64,000 bases of DNA from contig CALNZI010000006.1 in assembly GCA_942491275.1 (NCBI GenBank), positions 73,899 to 137,898 on the forward strand. Reading direction: 5' to 3'. Position 1 is the first letter of the stretch. Every line of letters starts with the position of its first letter. The DNA comes from Minisyncoccota bacterium (GTDB lineage: Bacteria; Patescibacteriota; Minisyncoccia; Phycocordibacterales; UBA9973). Shown here piece after piece: positions 4,129 to 62,131 of the stretch. The notes below the pieces were generated by a model. The model was not told the DNA's origin. It did not search any database and saw nothing but the letters and a program-made list of their open reading frames with translations. Made by a program: the position numbers and the translations under genes.

Positions 4129-4782
4129 TTAATTATCTAATTTAAAAAATTTAGTTTTTTCTCCATTAACAACTATAACTTCCCCATCCCTTAATGTTTT
4201 GTATGGTATATTATTTTTTTCATAATATTCAATTTCCTTATCTATGTCTGATGACTCAGGATGATCTGATTTATAATGCACAGCTATGTGGTAATCTAAA
4301 ATACCTAGTCCATTCCAACTAAAATCTAATTTATATCCCTGTGGAACTATTGATGGATCATCAACAATCTCTAATCCTTTTAATGACTTAGAAAGAATAA
4401 CAACACCAGCACTGAAACCAGAGTAAATAATCTCATCTTTCAAAATCATATCTTTTATAAGATTATCAAAACCACTCTGTTCATATGCACGCTTAAGCAC
4501 AAAAGTATTACCTCCATAAACCCAAACCATCCCAAAATTAAGAAGATGTTTTTTAAGTTCATCTTTTTTATTAAAGTAATTTCTTAAATCAATTTGTTCT
4601 GGCTTAAAACCTAAAGACTTTAAAACGTCTATTTGATCATTAAGACTCGCAGCTACTCTTTCTTTATCATCACTCCAGTCTACTGCATTCATAATCACCC
4701 CAACCTTTTTATTATCAAGTCTAAGTTTTACTAATTCTTCAGTATAATTTCCAAATTTGTATGATGATAAATATAATCTCAT
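4129..4782 (-). CDS. peptidase S51 (dipeptidase E-like) family protein
   Basis: 217 aa. Contains VYGGNTF and the nucleophile-elbow-like GFSAG, with overall peptidase E-like length and layout. Confidence 0.7.
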   Translation of the reverse strand: MRLYLSSYKFGNYTEELVKLRLDNKKVGVIMNAVDWSDDKERVAASLNDQIDVLKSLGFKPEQIDLRNYFNKKDELKKHLLNFGMVWVYGGNTFVLKRAYEQSGFDNLIKDMILKDEIIYSGFSAGVVILSKSLKGLEIVDDPSIVPQGYKLDFSWNGLGILDYHIAVHYKSDHPESSDIDKEIEYYEKNNIPYKTLRDGEVIVVNGEKTKFFKLDN

Positions 4783-4895
4783 CTGTTTATTTTATCATAA
4801 TTTAAATCTAATTAAGAGATAATGTCCTAAACCCTACCTTATTTTCTACAATCGAGTTCCAATAAATTACCCGTAGGGTCACCATGTCGTACTAG

Positions 4896-5651: not shown

Positions 5652-5669
5652 TATTAGTCCAATATCCTG

Positions 5670-8394: not shown

Positions 8395-10107
8395 TTACCT
8401 ATCTGGCGGGATATTATAATAGTTTAACAAAAATTTAGTTATATTCACAAATGGTGGAATAAGTGTCTGAGAAGCATATTTTACTCCCTTAGGATTTTCA
8501 ATAAACAAGAGAACTAAAAATTTGGGATCATAAGCTGGAAAATAGCCAAAAAATGAATGCATGTGCCTATTTTCATAATAACCACCACCTTCCTTTTTAG
8601 CAACCTGAGCTGTCCCTGTTTTAGTGGCAACACTATAATGTTCTAATCTATGAGCTCCTCCATCATATGCCTCAAAAACATGCACTAACATTCTAGTAAT
8701 CTCTTCTGAGGTTTCTTTCCTTATTACAGGCTTACCTATTATTGGATACTCTATTTTTTTTGTTATTCCATTATCGTATTTAATCTGTTTAACTAAATGA
8801 GGATTAATCAAATTACCTCCATTGGCTAAAGAAGAGAAAGCCCGAGCCGCTCCAATTGGAGTTAAAGCAATTCCCTGACCAAAAGCAGCGTTAGCATATT
8901 CTATATTTCTTGGACTGTCTAAATTTTTAATTAAACCATAAGTTTCATTTGGTAAATCAATATTGGTTTTTTCGCCTATTCCATAGGATTTCATATATGA
9001 ACGAAATTTATCGTGCCCTAATTTATTTTCAACATAAACCATCCCTGTATTAAGAGATTCATCAAGAACTTTTTGAATAGTAACTAAGCCTCTTCCTTTT
9101 TTATCAAAGTTATAAATTTGTTTTTTATCAACAGTAACAACTCCTTCATCTAAATAAGTTGAGTCTGATTTAATAACTCCTGAATCAAGGGCTCCAGCTA
9201 CAACCAGAGGTTTAATAACTGAACCAAATTCAAAAACATTTTCAATAATCGGATTTCTGTAAACACCAGGGTCTGCAACGTTTTCAAAATTATTTAAATC
9301 AAAAGTTGGAGCTCCTGCCATGGCATAGATTTCTCCGTTTTGTGGATTAATAATAATTCCTCCCACTTGATCTCCTTTCCATTTATTTAAAGTTGCCAAA
9401 AGCTCAGACTCAAGAGTCTGTTGAGTAGTCGGCTCTATCGTCGTAATAATACTTCCTTGATTATTTTCGGAAACAGATATTGTATCTCTAATGTTTGAAA
9501 AAACTTCAGCAAAAAAATTAACATAAATTTCACCTTTGGGTTTTGATAAAATTTTTTCATAAAAACGTTCTAAGCCATATTGACCAGCCTTATCGTCACC
9601 TTTAAAAGCAAGGAACCCAAGAGTGTGGGCGGCTAAATCCCCTCCTGGATAAAAGCGCCAATTATCTTTAAATATTGAAACTCCTGGTAATTTTAAATTT
9701 TCAATTTCACTAATTTGTTCTTTATTTAAATGAGTAGCAACCTCTTCGTAAGGATCATTTTTTTTATTGGCACGATACATAAAAGTATCCTTCTCCATTT
9801 TAAGATAAGGTTTTAAAGATTCATATAAATATTCTAAATCTGTAATTTTTGACGTATTTAAAGCAATCTTAAAACCAGAAGAAACGGTAGCTGCTGCTAC
9901 TAAAGACTGATCTTTTTTTGAAAAGAAAATTGAACCACGATTAAAAATATCACTTTGTGGTGTAGCGTATTGTTTGTCAGCTCTTTCTATATATAAATTA
10001 TTATTAACAACCTGAACTAAGAAAAGTTTCGCAATTAATATCCCAGCAAAAAGAAAAATAAGGACAGAAATAATCCTTATTCTTATTTTAAATGAAGATA
10101 AATTCAT
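8395..10107 (-). CDS. ftsI: class B penicillin-binding protein (division transpeptidase, FtsI-type)
   Basis: 570 aa with an N-terminal TM segment. Motifs SVIKP (SxxK) and KTGTA; position after ftsL. Confidence 0.85.
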   Translation of the reverse strand: MNLSSFKIRIRIISVLIFLFAGILIAKLFLVQVVNNNLYIERADKQYATPQSDIFNRGSIFFSKKDQSLVAAATVSSGFKIALNTSKITDLEYLYESLKPYLKMEKDTFMYRANKKNDPYEEVATHLNKEQISEIENLKLPGVSIFKDNWRFYPGGDLAAHTLGFLAFKGDDKAGQYGLERFYEKILSKPKGEIYVNFFAEVFSNIRDTISVSENNQGSIITTIEPTTQQTLESELLATLNKWKGDQVGGIIINPQNGEIYAMAGAPTFDLNNFENVADPGVYRNPIIENVFEFGSVIKPLVVAGALDSGVIKSDSTYLDEGVVTVDKKQIYNFDKKGRGLVTIQKVLDESLNTGMVYVENKLGHDKFRSYMKSYGIGEKTNIDLPNETYGLIKNLDSPRNIEYANAAFGQGIALTPIGAARAFSSLANGGNLINPHLVKQIKYDNGITKKIEYPIIGKPVIRKETSEEITRMLVHVFEAYDGGAHRLEHYSVATKTGTAQVAKKEGGGYYENRHMHSFFGYFPAYDPKFLVLLFIENPKGVKYASQTLIPPFVNITKFLLNYYNIPPDR

Positions 10108-10430
10108 TATCGGATAGCAACATGACTAATAGAGCGAGTAGCAAAAATATTATTTCGAGCATCAACAAATCCCATGGAAAAAGCATAGTCCTTATTAATT
10201 TTATTTAAATTGGAAAGATAGGTTAATTCTAATTCACTGACATTACTACTAGATAATCGAGCGGTATTCTCTAAAGATTTACGAGCTAGAACATTAAAAG
10301 TTATAGATCCGATTAAATAAATATAAGTAATAGCAAGAACAATAAGCCCTCCCATAAGGATTTTAAATAAAGTACGTCTTCTATAATTATTTTCAATCAT
10401 ATCTACAGTTATTGTTTTTACTTTATTCAT
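10107..10430 (-). CDS. FtsL-like single-pass membrane protein (call is positional)
   Basis: 107 aa with one TM helix. Lies between rsmH and ftsI, with overlapping stop/start codons. Confidence 0.55.
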   Translation of the reverse strand: MNKVKTITVDMIENNYRRRTLFKILMGGLIVLAITYIYLIGSITFNVLARKSLENTARLSSSNVSELELTYLSNLNKINKDYAFSMGFVDARNNIFATRSISHVAIR

Positions 10431-52920: not shown

Positions 52921-54018
52921 TAATTGCTAAGACAACGAAGCCAACAATTAATCCCACTACAATCAATACAATTGGCTCGATAATAGTAGCTAAATCTCGT
53001 GACATTGCCTCTGTTTTTTCTTCAAAAATAACTCCAATTTTAATAAATGTCTCAGAAAGTCTCCCTGATTTCTCAGAGGCTATAATTAATTGCTGAATAG
53101 GTATTGGAATATATTTATCTATATTTTTATAGGTTGATAATGCTATTTCAAAAGTATCTCCTTCAGATATACTTAATTGTAAATGGCTGTAAAACTTTTA
53201 TATCTATTATAGGAGGTTCCTTTTTTAATAGATTCAAGAGCTTCTCCTACTTGGAATCCTGCTTGTAATAAAACTCCCAAAAGATATCCTAAACGAGCAA
53301 TTTCTACTCCTTGTATTAATTTTTTTATTCCTGGAATAGAAAACATAATAGCATCCCCTACAAATTTAGTTTTCTTATTAAAAAACATAAAATAAACTAA
53401 CAAAAATAATCCAGTTATTATCAAAGGAACTGCAATAGCCCCATAATTGGACAAAAAGGAACCTATCCCCAAAAGAATTCTAGTGGTTATGGGCAAAGTC
53501 CCATCGGTTGTTTGAAAAATTGAAATAAGTTTTGGAAGAATGATCCAAGAACTACCAATAGCTACAATAATTGCCAATATTAAAACTACTCCGGGGTACA
53601 AGAGAGCTGACTTTAATCTTGAGTTAAATGTTTTTTCCTTATGTTGCTGGATGGTAACTAAGTTTAAATGTTCTGGCAACTTTCCTCCTTCTTCCCCAGA
53701 ACGAATAATAGAAATAATTCTTTGAGGTAAAAATTTTGTTATCTCAAAAGCTCTCCAAAGGGGCGTCCCGTCGTTAACCATAGTTTCTATTGCAATGGCT
53801 ATTTTTTTCATTTTTTTATTTTTAACGGAAAGACTTACAGAGGAAAGAGCGCCGGAAATCCCCATTCCAGAAGCAATTAATAAGCTTAAATTTTCAATAA
53901 AATAATCTCTCTCATCTCCAAAACCAATACTTATATAAGGCCAATCAGGTCGATACTCAAAAGCCGGTCTGGTGAAACCTTCTTTTTCGTATGATTTTCT
54001 CAATTCAATTTTTGACAT
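52886..54018 (-). CDS. pilC: type IV pilus/T2SS platform protein PilC/GspF, interrupted by a frame change at 53176-53197
   Basis: The track ORF 53173-54018 ends ..YNRYKSFTAIYN*. Another frame, open only from 53197, reads KFYSHLQLSISEGDTFEIALS...SEKSGRLSETF...IIEPIVLIVVGLIVGFVVLAIIGPIYGLSSQI* (stop 52886), which is the second GspF repeat. Confidence 0.8.
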
Positions 54019-54026
54019 ATAAATAA

Positions 54027-55676
54027 TTATTGTGGATTAATAACACGGATTAATTCTTCTAAAGTAGTTAATCCATCTTTAACTTTTTTAACTCCGTCTT
54101 CAAACATAGATTGGAAACCTTGACTTTTAATAAGAGTTAAAACTTCTTTGGTTGAAGGTCTTTTAATTATTAAATCTTGTAATTCTGGAGATATTTTTAT
54201 AAATTCAAAAATACCAACACGTCCTTTAAATCCTGTATGAGAACAAGACTCACAACCTTTCCCTTTATAAAAAGTAAAAGACTTCCCTTTTAAATATTGA
54301 CTGACTTCAGTTCCCAATTTATCAATTTTTGATTTTGAATAAACATCACTAACCTTACAGCTGTCACAAATTCTACGAACAAGACGCTGAGCTATTATAA
54401 GTTCAATTGTTGAACCAGCAAGAAAAGGCTCAATCCCCATATCTATAAATCGAGGAATTGCCGTGGCAGCATTATTTGCATGAAAAGTTGAAAACAAGAG
54501 ATGCCCTGTTAAAGAGGCATTCACCGCGATATCTGCAGTTTCAAGGTCTCTAATTTCTCCTACAAAAATAACATTAGGATCTTGCCTAGCTACAGCTCTT
54601 AACCCTTTTGCAAAAGTTAAATTAGTCTGAGGATTAACTTGAATTTGATTTACTCCGGCCATTTTGTACTCTACAGGATCTTCAATTGTTGTTATATTTA
54701 TCTTTTGAGTATTTATTATCTTAATAATGGAATAAAGAGTTGTTGTTTTACCTGAGCCAGTTGGTCCAGTAACCAGAATCATTCCAAATGGCTTATTGGC
54801 ACTTTTAATTATTTGCTCTTGTAATTCTTTAGAGAGACCTATGTTCCCTAATGTTAAATCACGAACATAGGAAGACAAAACTCTAATAGCAATTTTTTCT
54901 CCATCTAAAGTGGGTACGATTGAAACACGTAAATCAACCGGTTGAGCGTTATCCTTTGGTGTATAGCGAATTGCTCCATCCTGAGCACTAAAATGTTCAT
55001 CAATACGTAATCTTGATTGAACTTTCAAGCGGTTAACTATACTTCCATAATATTCATTAGGTATCTCTCCTGCATCGTGTAATATTCCATCTATTCTAAA
55101 TCTCACTATCACTTTTTTCTCTTGAGGTTCACAATGTATATCTGAAGCCTTAAGCAAAAGTGCATCTTCAAAAATTTGATCTAAAATTTCAGGAGCAATC
55201 CGGCCTTTTGATTCAATAATTTTAGAAAATTTTGTTTTAAGAGCTTGTTGATAATTAGCAAAAACAGTATCAATTTCATTTGATAAAGAAAAAGTAATCT
55301 TTATTTTTTTATTCAAAAATATGGTTTCTATCTCTTTCCGTAAATCTTTATTTAAAGGATCATCGGTAGCAACAACCATTTCTCCTTTATTTTGACTAAA
55401 AACCACCACATGAAATTTCTTCGCTATTTTTTCTGGGATCAAAAGAACTTGCTCTTTTGATGGTGGGTTAACCTCCAAGTTTGAATAAGAAACTTTCAGC
55501 GATTCTGCTATAGCCTGTCCAATAATATCAGTACTAGTAAGTTCTTTCACTAATAAATAATCAGTAGGAGAAACCCTATGCTCTTCTGCATATTCTTTAG
55601 CCTTTATTACATCTTCATCTGTAATATAACTCCCCTCTAAAAGAATTTTTAGTATTGTGTCCTGTTCAAATTTCAT
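54027..55676 (-). CDS. pilB: type IV pilus assembly ATPase (PilB/GspE family)
   Basis: 549 aa. Walker A GPTGSGKTTTLY, Asp/His boxes and C-terminal CDSC..CESC. Confidence 0.9.
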   Translation of the reverse strand: MKFEQDTILKILLEGSYITDEDVIKAKEYAEEHRVSPTDYLLVKELTSTDIIGQAIAESLKVSYSNLEVNPPSKEQVLLIPEKIAKKFHVVVFSQNKGEMVVATDDPLNKDLRKEIETIFLNKKIKITFSLSNEIDTVFANYQQALKTKFSKIIESKGRIAPEILDQIFEDALLLKASDIHCEPQEKKVIVRFRIDGILHDAGEIPNEYYGSIVNRLKVQSRLRIDEHFSAQDGAIRYTPKDNAQPVDLRVSIVPTLDGEKIAIRVLSSYVRDLTLGNIGLSKELQEQIIKSANKPFGMILVTGPTGSGKTTTLYSIIKIINTQKINITTIEDPVEYKMAGVNQIQVNPQTNLTFAKGLRAVARQDPNVIFVGEIRDLETADIAVNASLTGHLLFSTFHANNAATAIPRFIDMGIEPFLAGSTIELIIAQRLVRRICDSCKVSDVYSKSKIDKLGTEVSQYLKGKSFTFYKGKGCESCSHTGFKGRVGIFEFIKISPELQDLIIKRPSTKEVLTLIKSQGFQSMFEDGVKKVKDGLTTLEELIRVINPQ

Positions 55677-55728
55677 ACTTATTATTTATTGTTATTATTA
55701 AAGACCTAATTTTTAGTATAATTTTATT

Positions 55729-56112
55729 TTAATTAGAAACAATTCTTTTTTTGACTTTTTCCACAACCTCAGAAATAGGAGTATTCGATTTAATTAAAAA
55801 ATCAATAGCCCCAAGCTCTCTAACCTTTTTTTCATCTTCGGCTTGGCTTAAATTAGTTAAAACAATTACTGGAATATCTATTTTATTATCTTTTAAAATT
55901 TGCAAAACTTGAAAACCATCTATTTGAGGCATCAGCATATCAGAAATTATCAAAGAAAAGTCATTTTCTTTTAATAAAGAAAGTACATCCTCTCCATTAA
56001 AGTTTACAACAACTTCAAAACCTTCATGCGCCAACTTAAGTTCAAGTGCTCGAGCAAGAGGTTTTTCATCTTCTAAGACTAAAATTTTCTTTTTATTAGA
56101 TTTCATATGCAA
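55729..56112 (-). CDS. receiver-only response regulator (CheY-like)
   Basis: KKILVLEDE, LIISDMLMP, IVLTN. No output domain. The start may be the third codon (ATG 56106). Confidence 0.8.
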   Translation of the reverse strand: MHMKSNKKKILVLEDEKPLARALELKLAHEGFEVVVNFNGEDVLSLLKENDFSLIISDMLMPQIDGFQVLQILKDNKIDIPVIVLTNLSQAEDEKKVRELGAIDFLIKSNTPISEVVEKVKKRIVSN

Positions 56113-56987: not shown

Positions 56988-57911
56988 ATGAAAAAGAAAG
57001 ACCCACAAACAACAGATAAGATTATTGTTATCCTTGGTCAAACTTCCACAGGAAAGAGTGATTTTGCTGTTGAAATAGCCAAGAAAGTAAATGGGGAGAT
57101 TATTTCCGCTGATTCAAGACAAGTTTACAAAGGAATGAATCTTGGAACAGGTAAAATTACAAAAAAAGAAATGCGCAAGATGAAACATCATTTACTTGAT
57201 GTTGCTTCTCCCAAGAGAGTATTCTCTGTTAGTGACTTTGTTAAACTTGGTAACAAAAAAATAAAAGACATTCTAAAACGGGGGAAAGTTCCAATCATTT
57301 GCGGTGGAACTGGATTTTATATTGACAGCTTAATAAATGGTTCAACTTTCCCCGAAGTACCCCCAAATAAAAAACTTCGATCTCAACTTAAAAAGAAAAC
57401 TGTTACAGAACTTTTTAAGATATTAAAAAAGCTAGATAAAAATAGATCTCGAACAATTGACCCACAAAATAAAGTCCGTCTAATTCGAGCTATCGAAATA
57501 GCCCAAACCCTCGGCAAAACTCCAAATCTTGCCAAGGACCGTCCTTGGCAAGATTTAGCCTTAAAAATTGGGCTTGTTTTACCTCCTGAAGTTTTGAAGA
57601 AAAAAATTAATACTCGATTACTTTCTCGCATTAAAAAAGGAATGTTAAAAGAGATTCAAAAACTTCACGAAAGTAGTTTATCTTGGAAAAGAATGCATGA
57701 ACTAGGACTTGAATATCGATACGGAGCTCTTTATCTTCAAAATAAAATTAGTAAGGAGGAAATGATAGAAAAAATAAATACTAAAACTTGGCATTACGCC
57801 AAACGACAAAAAACTTGGTTCAAACGAGACCAAAATACAATTTGGATTGATCCTCGTAAAAAAAGTGAGATAAATAAAGTTCAGAAAGAGATAAAGAGGT
57901 TTTTAAACTAA
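56988..57911 (+). CDS. miaA: tRNA dimethylallyltransferase
   Basis: 307 aa. P-loop GQTSTGKSDFAVEIA, SADSRQVYKGMNLGT, CGGTGFY. Confidence 0.9.
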   Translation: MKKKDPQTTDKIIVILGQTSTGKSDFAVEIAKKVNGEIISADSRQVYKGMNLGTGKITKKEMRKMKHHLLDVASPKRVFSVSDFVKLGNKKIKDILKRGKVPIICGGTGFYIDSLINGSTFPEVPPNKKLRSQLKKKTVTELFKILKKLDKNRSRTIDPQNKVRLIRAIEIAQTLGKTPNLAKDRPWQDLALKIGLVLPPEVLKKKINTRLLSRIKKGMLKEIQKLHESSLSWKRMHELGLEYRYGALYLQNKISKEEMIEKINTKTWHYAKRQKTWFKRDQNTIWIDPRKKSEINKVQKEIKRFLN

Positions 57912-58042
57912 CGGGCGATGGAGGACCGTGAGTGCACTTATCGCCTATTACATAGGCAGGTACTTTTCCGCCGAGCTGTCGCTCGTATGGAAAAATCTTT
58001 CGATTCCTCCACGTAAGCAAAGCAGTTTGCTTTATATCGCCC
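57912..58042 (-). ncRNA. candidate structured RNA with a tRNA-Trp-like acceptor/T-stem frame (unclassified)
   Basis: 66/131 G+C. Six nested helices found by hand. The terminal 7-bp stem and 3' strand are identical to tRNA-Trp. One G-U pair favours the minus strand. Strand and function are uncertain. Confidence 0.45.
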
Positions 58043-58070
58043 AACAAAAAAAGCTTTCGCTTTTTTTCTT

Positions 58071-58161
58071 TGCGGGCTGTAAAAATCTGGAGTGGAACAC
58101 TATTGAAAATATGATTCTAAAATGGAATGGTGTATTTGAGGGGTTTGAGCTAATGAGTTGA
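58071..58161. repeat. copy A of a 91-bp direct repeat (81/91 identical to 59865-59955), with a degenerate ~80-nt extension
   Basis: Base-by-base alignment at offset 1794 with no indels in the core. Confidence 0.9.
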
Positions 58162-58256
58162 AGTGTTAAATGAGGTTTATGTTGTAATGCTATTTGTATT
58201 TAAAAGATTGATTAAATTACCTATGAATTTATAGAACCTTAAGTTTTACTTTGTAA

Positions 58257-58285
58257 ATAAAAAAAACCGCACTTGAAGTGCGGTT
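58257..58285 (-). terminator. intrinsic terminator of the 449-aa gene
   Basis: aaccgcac/gtgcggtt stem (58265-58285), followed on the minus strand by TTTTTTTTATTT. Confidence 0.75.
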
Positions 58286-58316
58286 AGTTTTTTAATTAAC
58301 ACAATTTTTTATCTTT

Positions 58317-59666
58317 CTACACCAATGACATCATCATTGTATAGTCACGAGCTAATTGAGTAGAACGAATTAGTCGTTTAGTAGTATCAGCTTCAATTTT
58401 ATAAAACTGAACCATAGCTGTTTGATGAGTTGGATTACCACCTTTCCATTCATTTTCTGGATCAGTAACAAAATAATAAGCATTAGCTTCCGGTGGTGCA
58501 ATAGCCTGAATTTCATTAATATCAAACTTAAAGAAACCATGATAACCACCAACGGTGGTACGAAATAAAATAGGATCACCCATTTTATCAATTTTGGTTA
58601 TTTTATACTCCGGTTCCCATGTATCTAATCTTGCTCCAACTTTTGGATACTGAGTAAACCATTGCTCATCAATTTGTACTAAACCTCTTAACCCTAAAGT
58701 AATTTGTCCATTAACAGGTTGCAACAATTTATTCCAGTGTTTTTTTAACAACTGACAAGCATCAGGGCCTGATTGAATGTTTGATATTATCTGCTCTCCA
58801 GATTTAATACCAATTAGACGAACACCATTATTCCATTCATGAGAGTCTACATCTAATACTAAGCTTTCATTTCCACCACTATGATGTAAATTAACTAATC
58901 GTCCAGTAGAAATCAAATGAGCCAAAGCATGACCTGTTTCAATTTTTGTATACCGGTAATTGCAATTCGAAGCATCACCCACTGTAATAATAAATGGATC
59001 TGAACTTTCGGCACCTGCTTCTCTGTGTTTTTTACGACGACCATCAAGGAACTCAATATGAACATCTTCCGGAATATTGTATTTATTCTCCGGATTAATT
59101 CCAGCTTGTTCTCGATGCCAAGCACGAGCGGCATCAACATGAACTTGAACATATTGTTCTGTTTGTGGACCAAAACGCGCCTTAAGTAATGGATCAACAA
59201 TGGCTTGTGAAGCTCTTAGAGTTTGGATAAAAGAATACTGGTATAGAGAATTATATTTATTGAAATCAATAACTTCAATTTCTCCATATTTACCACTTTC
59301 CAAATCCCATAATTCTTGCTGGGTAATACGACCACCATTCCTAGAACGAGTTTTGTCTTTGTATTCCCAACTATAAGCTTTCTGTATGCCTTGTAAATCA
59401 TACATAGGGCCAATTCCGTGAGCGACAATAATTATTTTATTGCCTTGCTTGGTGTAACCTACATACTCAGCAGTTAGCGAAGTGTAGTAAGTTTCCCATG
59501 GTTCCTCTCCAGGTCTAGTTTTTACTCTGGATGAAATAACATCTGGCATGGTTGCAATCCGGCCATTTTTGCCTGCAAATTGCATAGCTTGTTTCCAAGC
59601 TGCTGGTAACCCATCTTGATGGTAAAAAGCCATCGCTCCAGCATTTTTTTTTGTTTGTGTTGTCAT
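58317..59666 (-). CDS. orphan hypothetical protein (449 aa), soluble, His-rich patches
   Basis: Track ORF. Strong SD AAGGAGGAAAAG 4 nt before the ATG (reverse complement of 59671-59682), plus its own promoter-like element and terminator. No family recognised. Confidence 0.7.
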   Translation of the reverse strand: MTTQTKKNAGAMAFYHQDGLPAAWKQAMQFAGKNGRIATMPDVISSRVKTRPGEEPWETYYTSLTAEYVGYTKQGNKIIIVAHGIGPMYDLQGIQKAYSWEYKDKTRSRNGGRITQQELWDLESGKYGEIEVIDFNKYNSLYQYSFIQTLRASQAIVDPLLKARFGPQTEQYVQVHVDAARAWHREQAGINPENKYNIPEDVHIEFLDGRRKKHREAGAESSDPFIITVGDASNCNYRYTKIETGHALAHLISTGRLVNLHHSGGNESLVLDVDSHEWNNGVRLIGIKSGEQIISNIQSGPDACQLLKKHWNKLLQPVNGQITLGLRGLVQIDEQWFTQYPKVGARLDTWEPEYKITKIDKMGDPILFRTTVGGYHGFFKFDINEIQAIAPPEANAYYFVTDPENEWKGGNPTHQTAMVQFYKIEADTTKRLIRSTQLARDYTMMMSLV

Positions 59667-59740
59667 AGAACTTTTCCTCCTTTTCCCCGATTAGGGGTTT
59701 TATGGTTTATAACCTAACTTCATGTTAGATCTTTACTCAA

Positions 59741-59769
59741 AGATTACAACAAAATACTAAGGATGTCAA
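59741..59769 (-). promoter_or_regulatory. sigma70-like promoter candidate TTGACA-17-TAATCT for the 449-aa gene
   Basis: Minus strand: TTGACA (59769-59764), a 17-nt spacer, then TAATCT (59746-59741). The ~70-nt leader has two small hairpins. Confidence 0.4.
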
Positions 59770-59864
59770 TTTAATAAAAACTTAAATTAAGACACTACAA
59801 GAAAGTGTTCCATTACTCCACCAAGCAACAAAAAATCACCATTACAAAATATGGCCTATTTAAA

Positions 59865-59955
59865 ATGCGGACTGTAAAATTCTAGAATGGAACACTATAG
59901 AGAGTATGATTCTAAAATGGAATGGTGTATTTGAAGGGTTTGAGCTAATGAATTA
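59865..59955. repeat. copy B of the 91-bp direct repeat
   Basis: See copy A. Degenerate similarity continues to about 60040. Confidence 0.9.
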
Positions 59956-60103
59956 ATTAAAAGATTGAGCTTTGTTTTGTAATGTTTATTTAAATAAAGA
60001 AAGTTTTGTTTATTACCTATTGAATAATAGAACTATAATAAAGAAGTATAGAGATAAAAAAAGCTACACACAATAAGTATGCAGCTTTTATTTAAATTTA
60101 ACT

Positions 60104-60505
60104 TCATTTATTAAATCCAACTTTCCATTTTTTCTTATGAGAAACAAAAAGATTATATGAATACCCTATACTAAATCCAATAAAGAGTAAAATATGAATA
60201 CTCATATTGTGATCTTCTTTGTTGATTCCTTCAGAGAAGAAAATTTTAATAGCTAAAAGTTCTAAAAGATGCAATAAGCTAATAAGGATAACAACTCCTA
60301 ATGCTACGAATATCCAATAATCTACTTTTGTCGTTGATAATCTTTGTGCGATTCTTTCAGTGAATCTACACAGAACACCAACTAGATAGTAAAAAAGAAT
60401 TATTTCAGAGTCAACGAGGCTAATTCCAATTAAATGGTAAGGGACAATAATAATAACTGTCGTTATTATTATTCCAAAAATGAATAGTAATAGATTTGTT
60501 TTCAT
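60104..60505 (-). CDS. hypothetical polytopic membrane protein (133 aa)
   Basis: Track ORF with about 4 hydrophobic helices. Does not look like SecE. Confidence 0.5.
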   Translation of the reverse strand: MKTNLLLFIFGIIITTVIIIVPYHLIGISLVDSEIILFYYLVGVLCRFTERIAQRLSTTKVDYWIFVALGVVILISLLHLLELLAIKIFFSEGINKEDHNMSIHILLFIGFSIGYSYNLFVSHKKKWKVGFNK

Positions 60506-60663
60506 GTTTTCAAAGATTAAGTTGTTTTTATAAAATTTTACTAAGTTCTCTTAATTTCCATAAAGAAACTAGGAGAACCTAATAAAAAATAACAATTTAA
60601 TCTAAATATCAAAGAACCTATATACTACAAACAATAGCATATAAATAGGCATATGTCAAGATG

Positions 60664-60734
60664 CGGGCGATGGAGGAATCGAACCCCCGACATCGGTTTT
60701 GGAGACCGAAGTTATACCATTTAACTAATCGCCC
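60664..60734 (-). tRNA. tRNA-Trp (CCA)
   Basis: Manual fold: GGGCGAU/AUCGCCC acceptor stem, anticodon arm UCGGU-CUCCAAA-ACCGA, T arm GGGGG-UUCGAUU-CCUCC, discriminator G. No encoded CCA. Confidence 0.9.
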
Positions 60735-60792
60735 AATTACAACAAAATCCGCCTATGCGGATTATTGTACCAAACAAAAAGATAAAAAGGAA

Positions 60793-60951
60793 TTATTTCT
60801 TAGCCTCTTTGTGCTTGGTATTAGTCTTACACCATTTGCAAAATTTCTTAAGCTCGACTTTTTTAGTGACGAGTTTTTTGTTTTTACTTGACCAATAGTT
60901 GATCTTTTTACAATCACCACAGGCTAATTTGAAAAGTCTATCTTGTGACAT
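60793..60951 (-). CDS. rpmG: 50S ribosomal protein L33
   Basis: Manual translation: MSQDRLFKLACGDCKKINYWSSKNKKLVTKKVELKKFCKWCKTNTKHKEAKK* (52 aa, CxxC..CxxC L33 pattern). Absent from the ORF track, probably below its length cutoff; the plus-strand track ORF 60661-60891 here is spurious. Confidence 0.9.
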   Translation of the reverse strand: MSQDRLFKLACGDCKKINYWSSKNKKLVTKKVELKKFCKWCKTNTKHKEAKK

Positions 60952-60997
60952 AGTGGGTATAGAATACTATAAAACATTCTAAAAAGCAACATTTCCT

Positions 60998-62131
60998 TTA
61001 ACTTACAATCCTAGGTAATAATGGGTTAATTTGAGTAGTTACTTCGTAATTAATGGAATTCATTTTTTTAGCCAACTGCTCAGAAGTAATTCTATTTTTA
61101 ACTTGCTCTCCCAAAAGAACCACTTCATCCTCCACTTGAACGTCTTTAATACTAGAAACATCAACAACAATCATATTCATGGCTACTCTTCCTAAAATTT
61201 TAGCTTTCTTCCCTTTAATTAAAACTTCCCCATTATTAGAAAGCGATCGGGTTAGACCATCGGCATAACCCTGAGGAATAACTGCAATTTTAGTTTTCTT
61301 TTTAGTTATGTGAGTTAATCCATATCCAATGGGATGATTGGATGGAAGTATCTTAATTTGAGCAATATGAGAAATCCAACGCAAAGATGGCTTTAGAGTA
61401 ATTTCTTTTTTATTTAAATATTCCAAATGATCACTTGGCCACATACCATAGAGTCCAATGCCTAATCGAACAATACTATGGAGGTTATTCCCCTTTTCAT
61501 ATATTAATATTCCCGAAGTGGCTGAAATGTGTGTTTTTGTTTTAGGAAAACCATTTTCTCTAAAAATTTCTACACAACCATGATAAGTATCAATTTGTTT
61601 TTGAGCATGAGTAAAATTCATAGTATCTTCAATATTCGAAAAATGAGAATAAACTCCATCCAGAATAATATTTTTCATTTTCTTTATTTCTGGAATAACC
61701 TTCTCTACCTGGTTGGGCATGACCCCTTCTCTCCCCAGATATGAATCTATAGCTAAATGAACTTTAACTTTTCTTTTCAATTTTCCTGCAATTTTATTAA
61801 TTCTTAAAAGATGAACTAAATCAAAAGCAGAAATAATTGCTTTACTTTTTATTGCTTTTCTTATCCCCTCCTCATTTAAATAACCAAAAACTAAAATAGG
61901 TTTTTTTGTAAATTTTTGAATACTTTCTAATTCTTCAATACTATCAACTTGAAAATAATCAACGTGGGAATTTAGAATTTTAACAACTTCTTTATCTCCA
62001 TGACCATAGGCGTTAGATTTCACAACTCCCGCAATTTGTGATTTCTTTCCCAATAATCTTCGAAATTGCTTAATATTATGTATTAAGTTCTTTTTTGAAA
62101 TTTCTATGTATGAAAGTAATAAGTTCCTCAT
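60998..62131 (-). CDS. alr: alanine racemase
   Basis: 377 aa. PLP-lysine motif VVKSNAYGHG and a C-terminal beta domain with the Y of YGL. Confidence 0.9.
   Translation of the reverse strand: MRNLLLSYIEISKKNLIHNIKQFRRLLGKKSQIAGVVKSNAYGHGDKEVVKILNSHVDYFQVDSIEELESIQKFTKKPILVFGYLNEEGIRKAIKSKAIISAFDLVHLLRINKIAGKLKRKVKVHLAIDSYLGREGVMPNQVEKVIPEIKKMKNIILDGVYSHFSNIEDTMNFTHAQKQIDTYHGCVEIFRENGFPKTKTHISATSGILIYEKGNNLHSIVRLGIGLYGMWPSDHLEYLNKKEITLKPSLRWISHIAQIKILPSNHPIGYGLTHITKKKTKIAVIPQGYADGLTRSLSNNGEVLIKGKKAKILGRVAMNMIVVDVSSIKDVQVEDEVVLLGEQVKNRITSEQLAKKMNSINYEVTTQINPLLPRIVS

Follow-up and report, generated by a model that had tools for sequence, protein, structure and literature searches.

The 3´ ends of transfer RNA (tRNA) and transfer-messenger RNA (tmRNA) genes are classical targets of integrases. 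The genomes of the candidate phyla radiation (CPR, or Patescibacteria) are tiny and, to our knowledge, only a few of their systems of mobile elements or non-coding RNAs are understood. The described systems closest to the locus analysed here are the genomic islands bounded by attL/attR repeats at tRNA or tmRNA genes, the gene cassettes of integrons and the tRNA-like RNAs. The locus lies in a 64-kb stretch of DNA from a Minisyncoccota bacterium (contig CALNZI010000006.1), called the window below, to which all coordinates and strands refer unless another locus (L numbers) is named. Between the miaA and tRNA-Trp genes of this window are found a structured tail-matched tRNA-like element (TLE) and an insert with two genes. 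The best overall explanation, and on balance a probable one, is that a member of a TLE family is present next to miaA and that two gene cassettes were inserted between it and tRNA-Trp. The anatomy, that is, the TLE family with its structure, position rule and tail matching, the absence of the insert in relatives and the homology of the cassette ends to those of a cassette at locus L010, is reported with high confidence.

The 14-nt string CGGGCGATGGAGGA has exactly two copies in the window, 57912–57925 and 60664–60677, both on the + strand, with an expected count of 0.00 in 100 dinucleotide-preserving shuffles. The initial annotation of the sequence had recognized this repeat and its second copy as the 3´ end of tRNA-Trp, and both observations are borne out. 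The copy at 60664–60677 is the reverse complement of the tRNA-Trp(CCA) 3´ end (tRNA at 60663/60664–60734, minus strand; called by ARAGORN and by the Rfam tRNA model RF00005 with 67.5 bits), covering the last T-loop base, the T-stem 3´ strand, the acceptor 3´ strand and the discriminator. The distal copy, which had been taken for the other att repeat of an integrated island, is the 3´ tail of the TLE (57912–57925 on the minus strand, identical to the tRNA-Trp tail), with T-stem 3´ strand, acceptor 3´ strand and discriminator. The TLE occupies 57911–58044 on the minus strand and was detected by the covariance model R1 with 98.5 bits (E = 5e-26), as the only copy in the window. The same 134-nt stretch contains a 13-nt perfect inverted copy, TTCGATTCCTCCA, at 57999–58011 (repeat I11), with T-loop/T-stem sequence, and ATCGCCC at 58036–58042, so that the acceptor stem of tRNA-Trp and a T stem are each represented by their two strands.

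On the minus strand, the window TLE starts with an acceptor-like GGGCGAU (58042–58036), AU, the P2 hairpin (58033–58015) and ACG, continues with UGGAGG-AAUCGAAAG (58011–57997), the P4 hairpin, UAC, the P5 hairpin and AUAAGUGCACUCACGG, and ends with UCCUCC-AUCGCCC-G (57925–57912). The GC content of 57911–58044 is 0.49, compared with 0.32 for the window, and the stretch folds far better than its shuffles (z = -4.9 on the + strand, -4.1 on the - strand). Neither ARAGORN nor the Rfam tRNA model calls it as a tRNA, and no tail copies were found for the four other tRNAs of the window. The stop codon of miaA, which encodes a tRNA isopentenyltransferase (56988–57911, + strand; Pfam IPPT, E = 2e-65) and is convergent with the element, abuts the 3´ end of the TLE; the gene served as a synteny anchor in relatives.

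A degenerate pattern derived from four members of the family and scanned against a metagenome collection matched 112 stretches. A same-strand tRNA gene was located upstream in 66 of 89 pattern instances, for Trp, Lys (CUU, UUU), Arg (four anticodons), Leu or Ile, usually at a distance of 13–62 nt from the element. Members with the ends GGAGATG...CATCTCCAC or GGAGATG...CCCGCCATCTCCAC follow tmRNA genes. A covariance model built from 25 members, 24 of them from genomes other than that of the window, gave 115 hits in 100 sources among the fetched loci: a tRNA precedes 70 of them by at most 100 nt, a tmRNA precedes 7 and another copy of the element 12, and 8 lie at contig edges. The window alone, among the 115 hits, shows a separation between tRNA and element of kilobase size. 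The length of the TLE is about 110–150 nt across the family, and the exact match between the end of the element and the end of the upstream gene has a median of 13 nt and a maximum of 22 in this census. An element is also found behind a suppressor-like tRNA (L162, about 10163–10320), which ARAGORN calls as tRNA-Stop(tta), anticodon UUA.

The members share a common order in tRNA sense. A strand of 7–9 nt, identical or complementary to the acceptor stem of the neighbour, is followed by AG and by P2, a conserved hairpin CAAGCAAA-CUGC-UUUGCUUG; then come YG, U or G with the complement of the neighbour's T-stem 3´ strand, AAKCGAAAG, a variable hairpin (P4), GUAYAC or UAC, the hairpin P5 (..UGUAA..) and GAU(UAC) or GAUAAGYGUACUCRCGG. 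The 3´ end is formed by the neighbour's T-stem 3´ strand, acceptor 3´ strand and discriminator plus one or two further bases. In comparison with a tRNA, P2 takes the place of the D-arm, the consensus structure has no anticodon arm and the T loop is expanded into AAUCGAAAG-P4-GUAYAC-P5-GAU. One core subtype adjoins Trp, Lys, Leu and Ile tRNAs and also a putative tmRNA in L109, the latter judged by its tmRNA-type ends only. A second core type exists (L011, L013, L098 and others), as do composite members with two or three cores chained in one outer stem.

Where the stems of the tRNA are not Watson–Crick paired, the 5´ strands of the element match the tail's complement 42 times and the tRNA's own 5´ strand 10 times. 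In the window, the T stem of the tRNA is GGGGG/CCUCC and the TLE has GGAGG. Since its 5´ strands follow the tail in complement, the TLE is not simply a duplicated tRNA. Tandem arrays of elements also occur, with three identical 152-nt units in L137 (11979–12418) and two in L135 (1098–1350), and in the Trp-locus arrays of two to four tails the distal copy is degenerate and the proximal one exact. Further positions of a tandem array were recorded in L010 (3552–3824 and 4714–4760). Identical units such as those of L137 suggest very recent amplification, and assembly collapse or expansion could also account for them.

The structure is supported by covariation. RNAalifold gives 31 pairs in five helices, and 22 of these pairs are compensatory. 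In 102 distinct model hits, 91.9% of the cells are paired, compared with 64.8% in column shuffles and about 47% when the partners are slid by one to three columns; both sides of the pair change in 30 of the 31 pairs (102 distinct sequences), and the covariation score is 0.576 versus 0.164 and at most 0.106 in the controls. P2, P4 and P5 were unconstrained by the choice of sequences, while P1 and P3 (alignment A3) were partly selected for pairing. On the tRNA-sense strand, P2–P5 contain 71 G·U compared with 24 A·C combinations. Moreover, the unpaired positions AG, GUG, AAUCGAAAG, GUAYAC, UGUAA and GAU are strongly conserved, and some loops are GNRA-like. The family model and the covariation thus place the distal 14-mer in a conserved structured element, a candidate functional RNA, which is the alternative that the initial annotation had itself set against its att repeat.

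The stacking of an acceptor-like stem on a T-like stem is reminiscent of the tRNA-like domain of tmRNA, YrlA Y RNA (PMC4201824), mascRNA and the viral 3´ tRNA-like structures. The T-loop-like UCGAA of the TLE is shared with tRNA-like RNAs, and processing by tRNA enzymes is plausible. However, these RNAs are not sequence-matched to a neighbouring tRNA, do not stand systematically behind tRNA or tmRNA genes and are not tandem, whereas the TLE has no anticodon-arm or D-loop mimic and no Rfam match. No Rfam 15 family matched it in 57500–61000 or in L029 (9880–10180) at E-values up to 10, the only matches being to tRNA or at chance level, and in 16 relatives the gathering thresholds of Rfam returned tRNA and tmRNA only. 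Full-text literature searches and one paper on Patescibacteria tRNA introns contained nothing comparable. As far as can be told from Rfam and the literature searched, the widespread TLE family of Patescibacteria/CPR was previously undescribed, with no counterpart there for structured elements in which the acceptor and T stems of the preceding tRNA or tmRNA are copied; neither the family nor the cassettes that use tRNA tails could be placed in a known class. As an RNA, the TLE would represent a new class of tRNA mimics, one linked to the transcription units of tRNAs; as a recombination site in DNA, it would point to an unknown system of tail-directed recombination. Either reading would account for the variability of tRNA-adjacent regions in the genomes that carry it.

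The gene order around the locus had been described as broken after rpmG–tRNA-Trp. The best matches of MiaA, with 70–72% identity, mark the organism as a CPR bacterium similar to Paceibacteria/Nomurabacteria. In its relatives, the conserved order is p76–miaA(+)–tRNA-Trp–rpmG(-)–alr(-)–tRNA-Leu–murB, so the arrangement of the window is, judged by gene order, ancestral and not a break caused by an island. Searches of the window for L11 and for two NusG signature motifs found nothing, which is a weak negative, and secE was not searched for. The tRNA-Trp gene is found on the + strand directly after miaA in L007, L008, L013, L014 and L031, and on the minus strand beside rpmG in L009, L011, L015–L021 and the window. 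These opposite orientations of tRNA-Trp, along with its element where there is one, imply the repeated inversion of a module of about 100–400 bp; in L013 and L031, the whole element module is inverted along with the tRNA. Partial direct and inverted copies of the tRNA-Trp tail are found just downstream of tRNA-Trp in L009, L011, L013, L029, L031 and L054, and they carry the T-stem variant of each genome. As the tail copies track both the variant and the orientation of the tRNA, the element belongs with the tRNA and not with miaA or the insert.

The distance between tRNA-Trp and the TLE (or tandem TLE) is 13–62 nt in L008, L009, L029, L088, L102, L106, L107, L118, L139 and L150, versus 2,618 nt in the window. 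In L011, the 148 nt from the miaA stop to the minus-strand tRNA-Trp consist of a homolog of the window element and nothing else. The window genes p133 and p449, named after the lengths of their products, are absent between tRNA-Trp and the element in every relative examined, including L011 and the closest relative, L139. The search for an empty site suggested in the initial annotation has thus found Trp loci of relatives in which the TLE follows tRNA-Trp without p133 or p449. At strain level no empty site was found, as the sole other assembly of the organism (L006, ERR9669565) is equally filled. In L139, the minus-strand order is rpmG, tRNA-Trp, element, a tail copy that the model does not score and a second element. 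Past these elements, beside miaA, the open reading frames (ORFs) of 8576–9741 read as a 139-aa NUDIX-like protein and a 223-aa membrane protein like the YhhQ-type queuosine-precursor transporters. This cargo differs from that of the window, so the gap between miaA and tRNA-Trp holds lineage-specific cargo and carries different genes in different lineages.

The insert of the window is real and lineage-specific, and it looks to be composed of two tandem single-gene cassettes, rather than of the single island (57912–60663) that had been proposed. The terminal GCCCGCA of tRNA-Trp (60668–60662), which reaches two bases past the discriminator, appears to be its proximal boundary. In the window, TGCGGGC occurs on the + strand at 58071–58077 and 60662–60668 only, and TGCGGAC at 59866–59872 only. 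With slashes marking the boundaries, the minus-strand junctions read ...CCATC/GCCCGCA/TCTTGACATATGCC at the tRNA end, ...TTTTACA/GTCCGCA/TTTTAAATAGGCC where the repeat copy D1b of cassette A ends, and ...TTTTACA/GCCCGCA/AAGAAAAAAAGCGAAAGCTTTTTTTGTT/GGGCGAT where D1a of cassette B ends, the 7-mer being followed here by a spacer and then by the element. This spacer (58043–58070) carries a bidirectional terminator-like hairpin, AAAAAAAGC-GAAA-GCUUUUUUU in minus-strand reading (inverted repeat I19), and its layout, compared by eye and unaligned, is like that of the GAAA-loop terminator directly after the tRNA-Trp of L008; it is proposed to be the original spacer between tRNA-Trp and the TLE. From the junction 7-mers and the L008-like spacer, the minus-strand GCCCGCA at 58071–58077 is best read as what was originally the end of tRNA-Trp, putatively displaced, and as the distal limit of the insert.

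Cassette A (59873–60661, minus strand) begins with a strong promoter-like site, TTGACA-17-TGnTATTGT, at 60659–60631, 3 nt past the tRNA end, and contains a hydrophobic ORF of 133 aa (60505–60104), a terminator (60089–60059) and the right end D1b (about 60035–59873). The one-mismatch 7-mer GTCCGCA (59866–59872, minus strand) separates it from cassette B (58078–59865, minus strand), in which a left end (about 59865–59790) is followed by a leader with two hairpins and a Shine–Dalgarno sequence (about 59790–59667), the 449-aa ORF (59666–58317), a terminator (58285–58265) and the right end D1a (about 58240–58078). The two genes, with their sizes and the Shine–Dalgarno sequence and terminator of the larger one, are as the initial annotation gave them. 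D1, a second repeat family that flanks the 449-aa gene, is the conserved right end, of about 190 nt, of each window cassette. A third cassette was found in L010, a locus with 69% MiaA identity: its right end is homologous to D1, its left end is homologous to that of cassette B and its cargo is a different ORF of 197 aa. The tail copies at its flanks are CCTCCATCGCCCGCA to the left and CCTC-ATCGCCCGTA to the right, and the cassette is inserted behind an element, not behind a tRNA.

Like the attL/attR islands (tyrosine-integrase islands, prophages and CIME-type elements), this locus has direct repeats of a tRNA 3´-terminal sequence, here GCCCGCA at the tRNA end and at 58077–58071, at both ends of the insert. 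The targeting of tmRNA as well, the intact tRNA, the variable cargo that adjoins it and the position of the freshest tandem copy next to the tRNA are further resemblances. The TLE differs from such islands in being a non-coding element of about 110–150 nt, with five covarying helices, that carries the complement of the tail, and in having neither a linked integrase nor a carrier among viral contigs; the cassettes differ in being single genes with conserved ends and a tail repeat of 7–13 nt only. The absence of an integrase from the interval, already noted in the initial annotation, holds for both sizeable ORFs, neither of which has a recombinase domain in Pfam, PHROGs or NCBIfam. A phage attP was also considered and rejected, as neither the element pattern (0 matches in 2.9 million viral contigs) nor the D1 core was found in viral contigs. 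Composition is not diagnostic of a foreign origin: the z-scores for GC content at third codon positions are -0.06 for p449 and -0.37 for p133, and the tetranucleotide distance of the interval is in the top 9% of 2.75-kb windows.

Integron cassettes offer another comparison, with tandem single-gene units at one site, recombination-site-like ends and a 7-nt core at the boundaries. Furthermore, the TLE is similar to a folded attC site in its paired end boxes and variable central structure of about 60–140 nt. In contrast to integrons, the array has no intI or attI beside it, being flanked by rpmG and alr at one end and by miaA at the opposite end; a tRNA tail serves as anchor in place of attI, and the cassettes have their own promoters. 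D1 is not an evident palindrome, and the folding of its copies on the cassette strand is weak (-4 and -10.5 kcal/mol for 165 nt), without end-to-end pairing; the TLEs contain no ORF, and the 7-nt core is unrelated to GTTRRRY. It is conceivable, if rather unlikely, that TLEs and D1-ended cassettes form a single integron-like gene-capture system of CPR. In such a speculative system, the tails of tRNA and tmRNA would serve as anchors and the TLEs, as copies of these sites folded in RNA or single-stranded DNA, would multiply the docking points or guide a recombinase acting in trans, and single-gene cassettes with their own promoters might, just as doubtfully, shuffle in and out at the tails.

The 449-aa protein, described at first as an orphan, belongs to a family of more than 320 homologs with 51–77% identity, whose hosts include Paceibacteria, Falkowbacteria and Levybacteria. 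Conservation in this family is strong, with no sign of hypervariability, and the protein has no match in Pfam, PHROGs or NCBIfam. Its gene is stand-alone and found in varied neighbourhoods; a tRNA adjoins it in three of eight contexts only, and a general link between the gene and tRNAs was rejected on these grounds. The structure model (pLDDT 91.5) has one significant neighbour in PDB, AvpA (5ioo_A; Foldseek E = 1e-8, target-normalised TM 0.71), the C-type-lectin-fold variable protein of a diversity-generating retroelement of Nanoarchaeota. In this model, the N-terminal ~280 residues superpose on 5ioo_A, which predicts a C-type-lectin-like fold for the 449-aa protein, and the C-terminal beta-rich domain has no PDB neighbour. 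The predicted likeness to AvpA and other variable proteins of diversity-generating retroelements does not extend further, as the family is conserved and no template/variable repeat overlaps the 449-aa ORF. No reverse transcriptase or other domain was matched in the two sizeable ORFs of the interval. The D1 copies were rejected as a template/variable repeat pair: among the 13 mismatches of the stretch compared, the A is in D1b at 9 and in D1a at 3, a spectrum without a clean adenine rule, and both copies are non-coding.

The leader of the 449-aa gene is also conserved in the family, in the window (59667–59790, minus strand) and in L001 (5880–6000), as well as upstream of the gene in L004, L005 and L199–L201. 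It consists of a TTGACA-type promoter, a first hairpin whose sequence varies by locus with its pairing kept and a second hairpin, AAAACCCC-UAAnn-GGGG, that abuts the Shine–Dalgarno sequence; the leader could be regulatory or stabilising. Distant CPR classes also share the terminator stem, ACCGCAC...GUGCGGU. The D1-ended cassettes suggest a route by which single genes, including this very conserved protein with its predicted C-type-lectin fold, could pass between CPR genomes. The 133-aa protein has no homologs besides itself. In the 5´ untranslated region of its gene, a stretch of about 80 nt with a long hairpin (60537–60616), for which Rfam returned only chance miRNA-like matches, is 86% identical to positions 5664–5742 of L157, an unrelated metagenome contig with a tmRNA-type element about 400 nt away.

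As to how the TLE may work, a tentative mechanism can be put forward. The element would be co-transcribed with the upstream tRNA as a trailer and would fold as a tRNA-like acceptor/T minihelix, which tRNA-processing enzymes could cut off, so that the upstream tRNA would mature normally. The TLE would spread or duplicate by tail-directed recombination, and its tail copies could serve as extra attachment sites for cassettes, as the docking of the L010 cassette at the tail of an element may illustrate. The recombinase of the cassettes would have to act in trans. This scheme is a possibility that we hold with much less confidence than the anatomy.

Several points weigh against the explanation by a TLE and two inserted cassettes. 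With respect to the RNA, alignment A4 was fitted to the model, so the percentage paired is somewhat inflated, and the case for an RNA role, which stays an inference from sequences, consists of the covariation, the G·U bias and the GNRA-like loops only. P1 lacks the asymmetry between G·U and A·C (28 versus 25) and often pairs bases past the mature tRNA end; both features suggest copying at the level of DNA rather than selection on RNA. The proposal does not explain how a TLE core gains ends that match a new tRNA. With respect to the insert, the 7-mer boundary is short and its middle copy has one mismatch, so it could be over-read, the cassette family is supported by three cassettes in two genomes, and no recombinase has been identified.

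The rival explanation that survives best, though we regard it as unlikely, is that the TLE is not a functional RNA but a DNA recombination site, or a miniature non-autonomous element, that folds as single-stranded DNA. In a manner similar to an integron attC or the attP of CTX phage, the fold would recreate the duplex of the tail, a recombinase acting in trans would insert the TLE at the 3´ ends of tRNA and tmRNA genes and the cassettes would share its sites. The range of targets, tRNA and tmRNA, is that of the classical integrases, the tail copies run past the end of the mature tRNA and the tail is perfectly complemented by the 5´ strands. The tandem arrays with exact proximal and degenerate distal copies, including the three identical copies of L137, point in the same direction, as do the variation of the element in presence, type and orientation among related genomes, the occurrence of one core beside different tRNAs, the cassettes found at the tails of both a tRNA (window) and a TLE (L010) and the lack of G·U bias in P1. 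On the other hand, many unpaired positions are strongly conserved in sequence, and the GNRA-like loops and the 3:1 G·U bias of P2–P5 are typical of RNA. Besides, the 2.9 million viral contigs contain no matches, no recombinase is linked to the element, and a free circle of about 150 bp would be physically awkward as a duplex. The RNA-trailer and single-stranded-DNA readings are not mutually exclusive.

Far less probable is the reading of the initial annotation, in which 57912–60663 is a single decayed island of 2.7 kb integrated in tRNA-Trp and the 14-nt repeat is the attL/attR core. The repeat is indeed exact and ends precisely at the tRNA 3´ end, and the interval is absent from relatives. 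However, the 134-nt element of which the distal 14-mer is part reaches 98.5 bits under a model drawn, in 24 of its 25 members, from other genomes; L011 has a related element, and L009, L029, L088 and other loci have members that score with the model, none of them with the island. A tail copy is present in every family member, whatever tRNA precedes it. Moreover, the putative original spacer and displaced tRNA end (58043–58077) would fall inside the proposed island, in which the same 7-mer also marks an internal junction and the right ends occur in duplicate. What stands of the earlier claim of integration at the tRNA-Trp 3´ end is that DNA was inserted there, as the longer gap of the window indicates; what falls is the 14-mer as an att duplication, given that a conserved structured element has it as its 3´ end and that a related element occurs in L011 without an island. 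The interval resolves instead into two cassettes with 7-mer boundaries and an internal junction. In CPR, a direct repeat of a tRNA 3´ end is not automatically the boundary of an island.

It is very hard to believe that the element is a decaying duplicate of tRNA-Trp, that is, a pseudogene with no function of its own: it has the acceptor strands and the T-stem 3´ strand in common with tRNA-Trp, whose differing orientation among relatives indicates that rearrangements happen at the site, but its non-tRNA core is homologous beside unrelated tRNAs and tmRNA, with compensatory changes in P2, P4 and P5, its 5´ strands follow the tail and not the tRNA's own 5´ strands, and its blocks are either perfect or unrelated to the tRNA, unlike the product of uniform decay. 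Least credible of all is a plus-strand structure or terminator in the miaA 3´ untranslated region, possibly a tRNA mimic that regulates MiaA, since, even though the element starts one base past the miaA stop codon, folds well in + orientation (z = -4.9), has a terminator-like hairpin after it and adjoins a tRNA-Trp with the A36–A37 context of MiaA substrates, the position and strand of the family follow the tRNA or tmRNA, most members are nowhere near miaA, the related elements of L013 and L031 and the member of L008 are on the far side of tRNA-Trp from miaA and the G·U bias favours the minus strand; this candidate was rejected by the position rule.

Some minor features complete the locus. The upstream neighbour of tRNA-Trp is rpmG, encoding ribosomal protein L33 (60793–60951, minus strand; Pfam Ribosomal_L33, E = 2.5e-14), and a terminator-like hairpin (60763–60746) is located between the two. 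In L006 (Logan contig ERR9669565_342028), miaA is split into two gene calls at 4307–4854, and tblastn of the window miaA (56988–57911) on this locus gives two pieces with 83% and 99% identity; the split reflects either a frameshift, sequence variation with respect to the window or an assembly error. Finally, positions 53173–56112 of the window encode a 549-aa PilB/GspE-like ATPase, a 281-aa ORF read as PilC-like and a 127-aa receiver-domain protein, which appear to be typical CPR genes for a surface appendage (type IV pilus or secretion-type), unrelated to the TLE and its cassettes.

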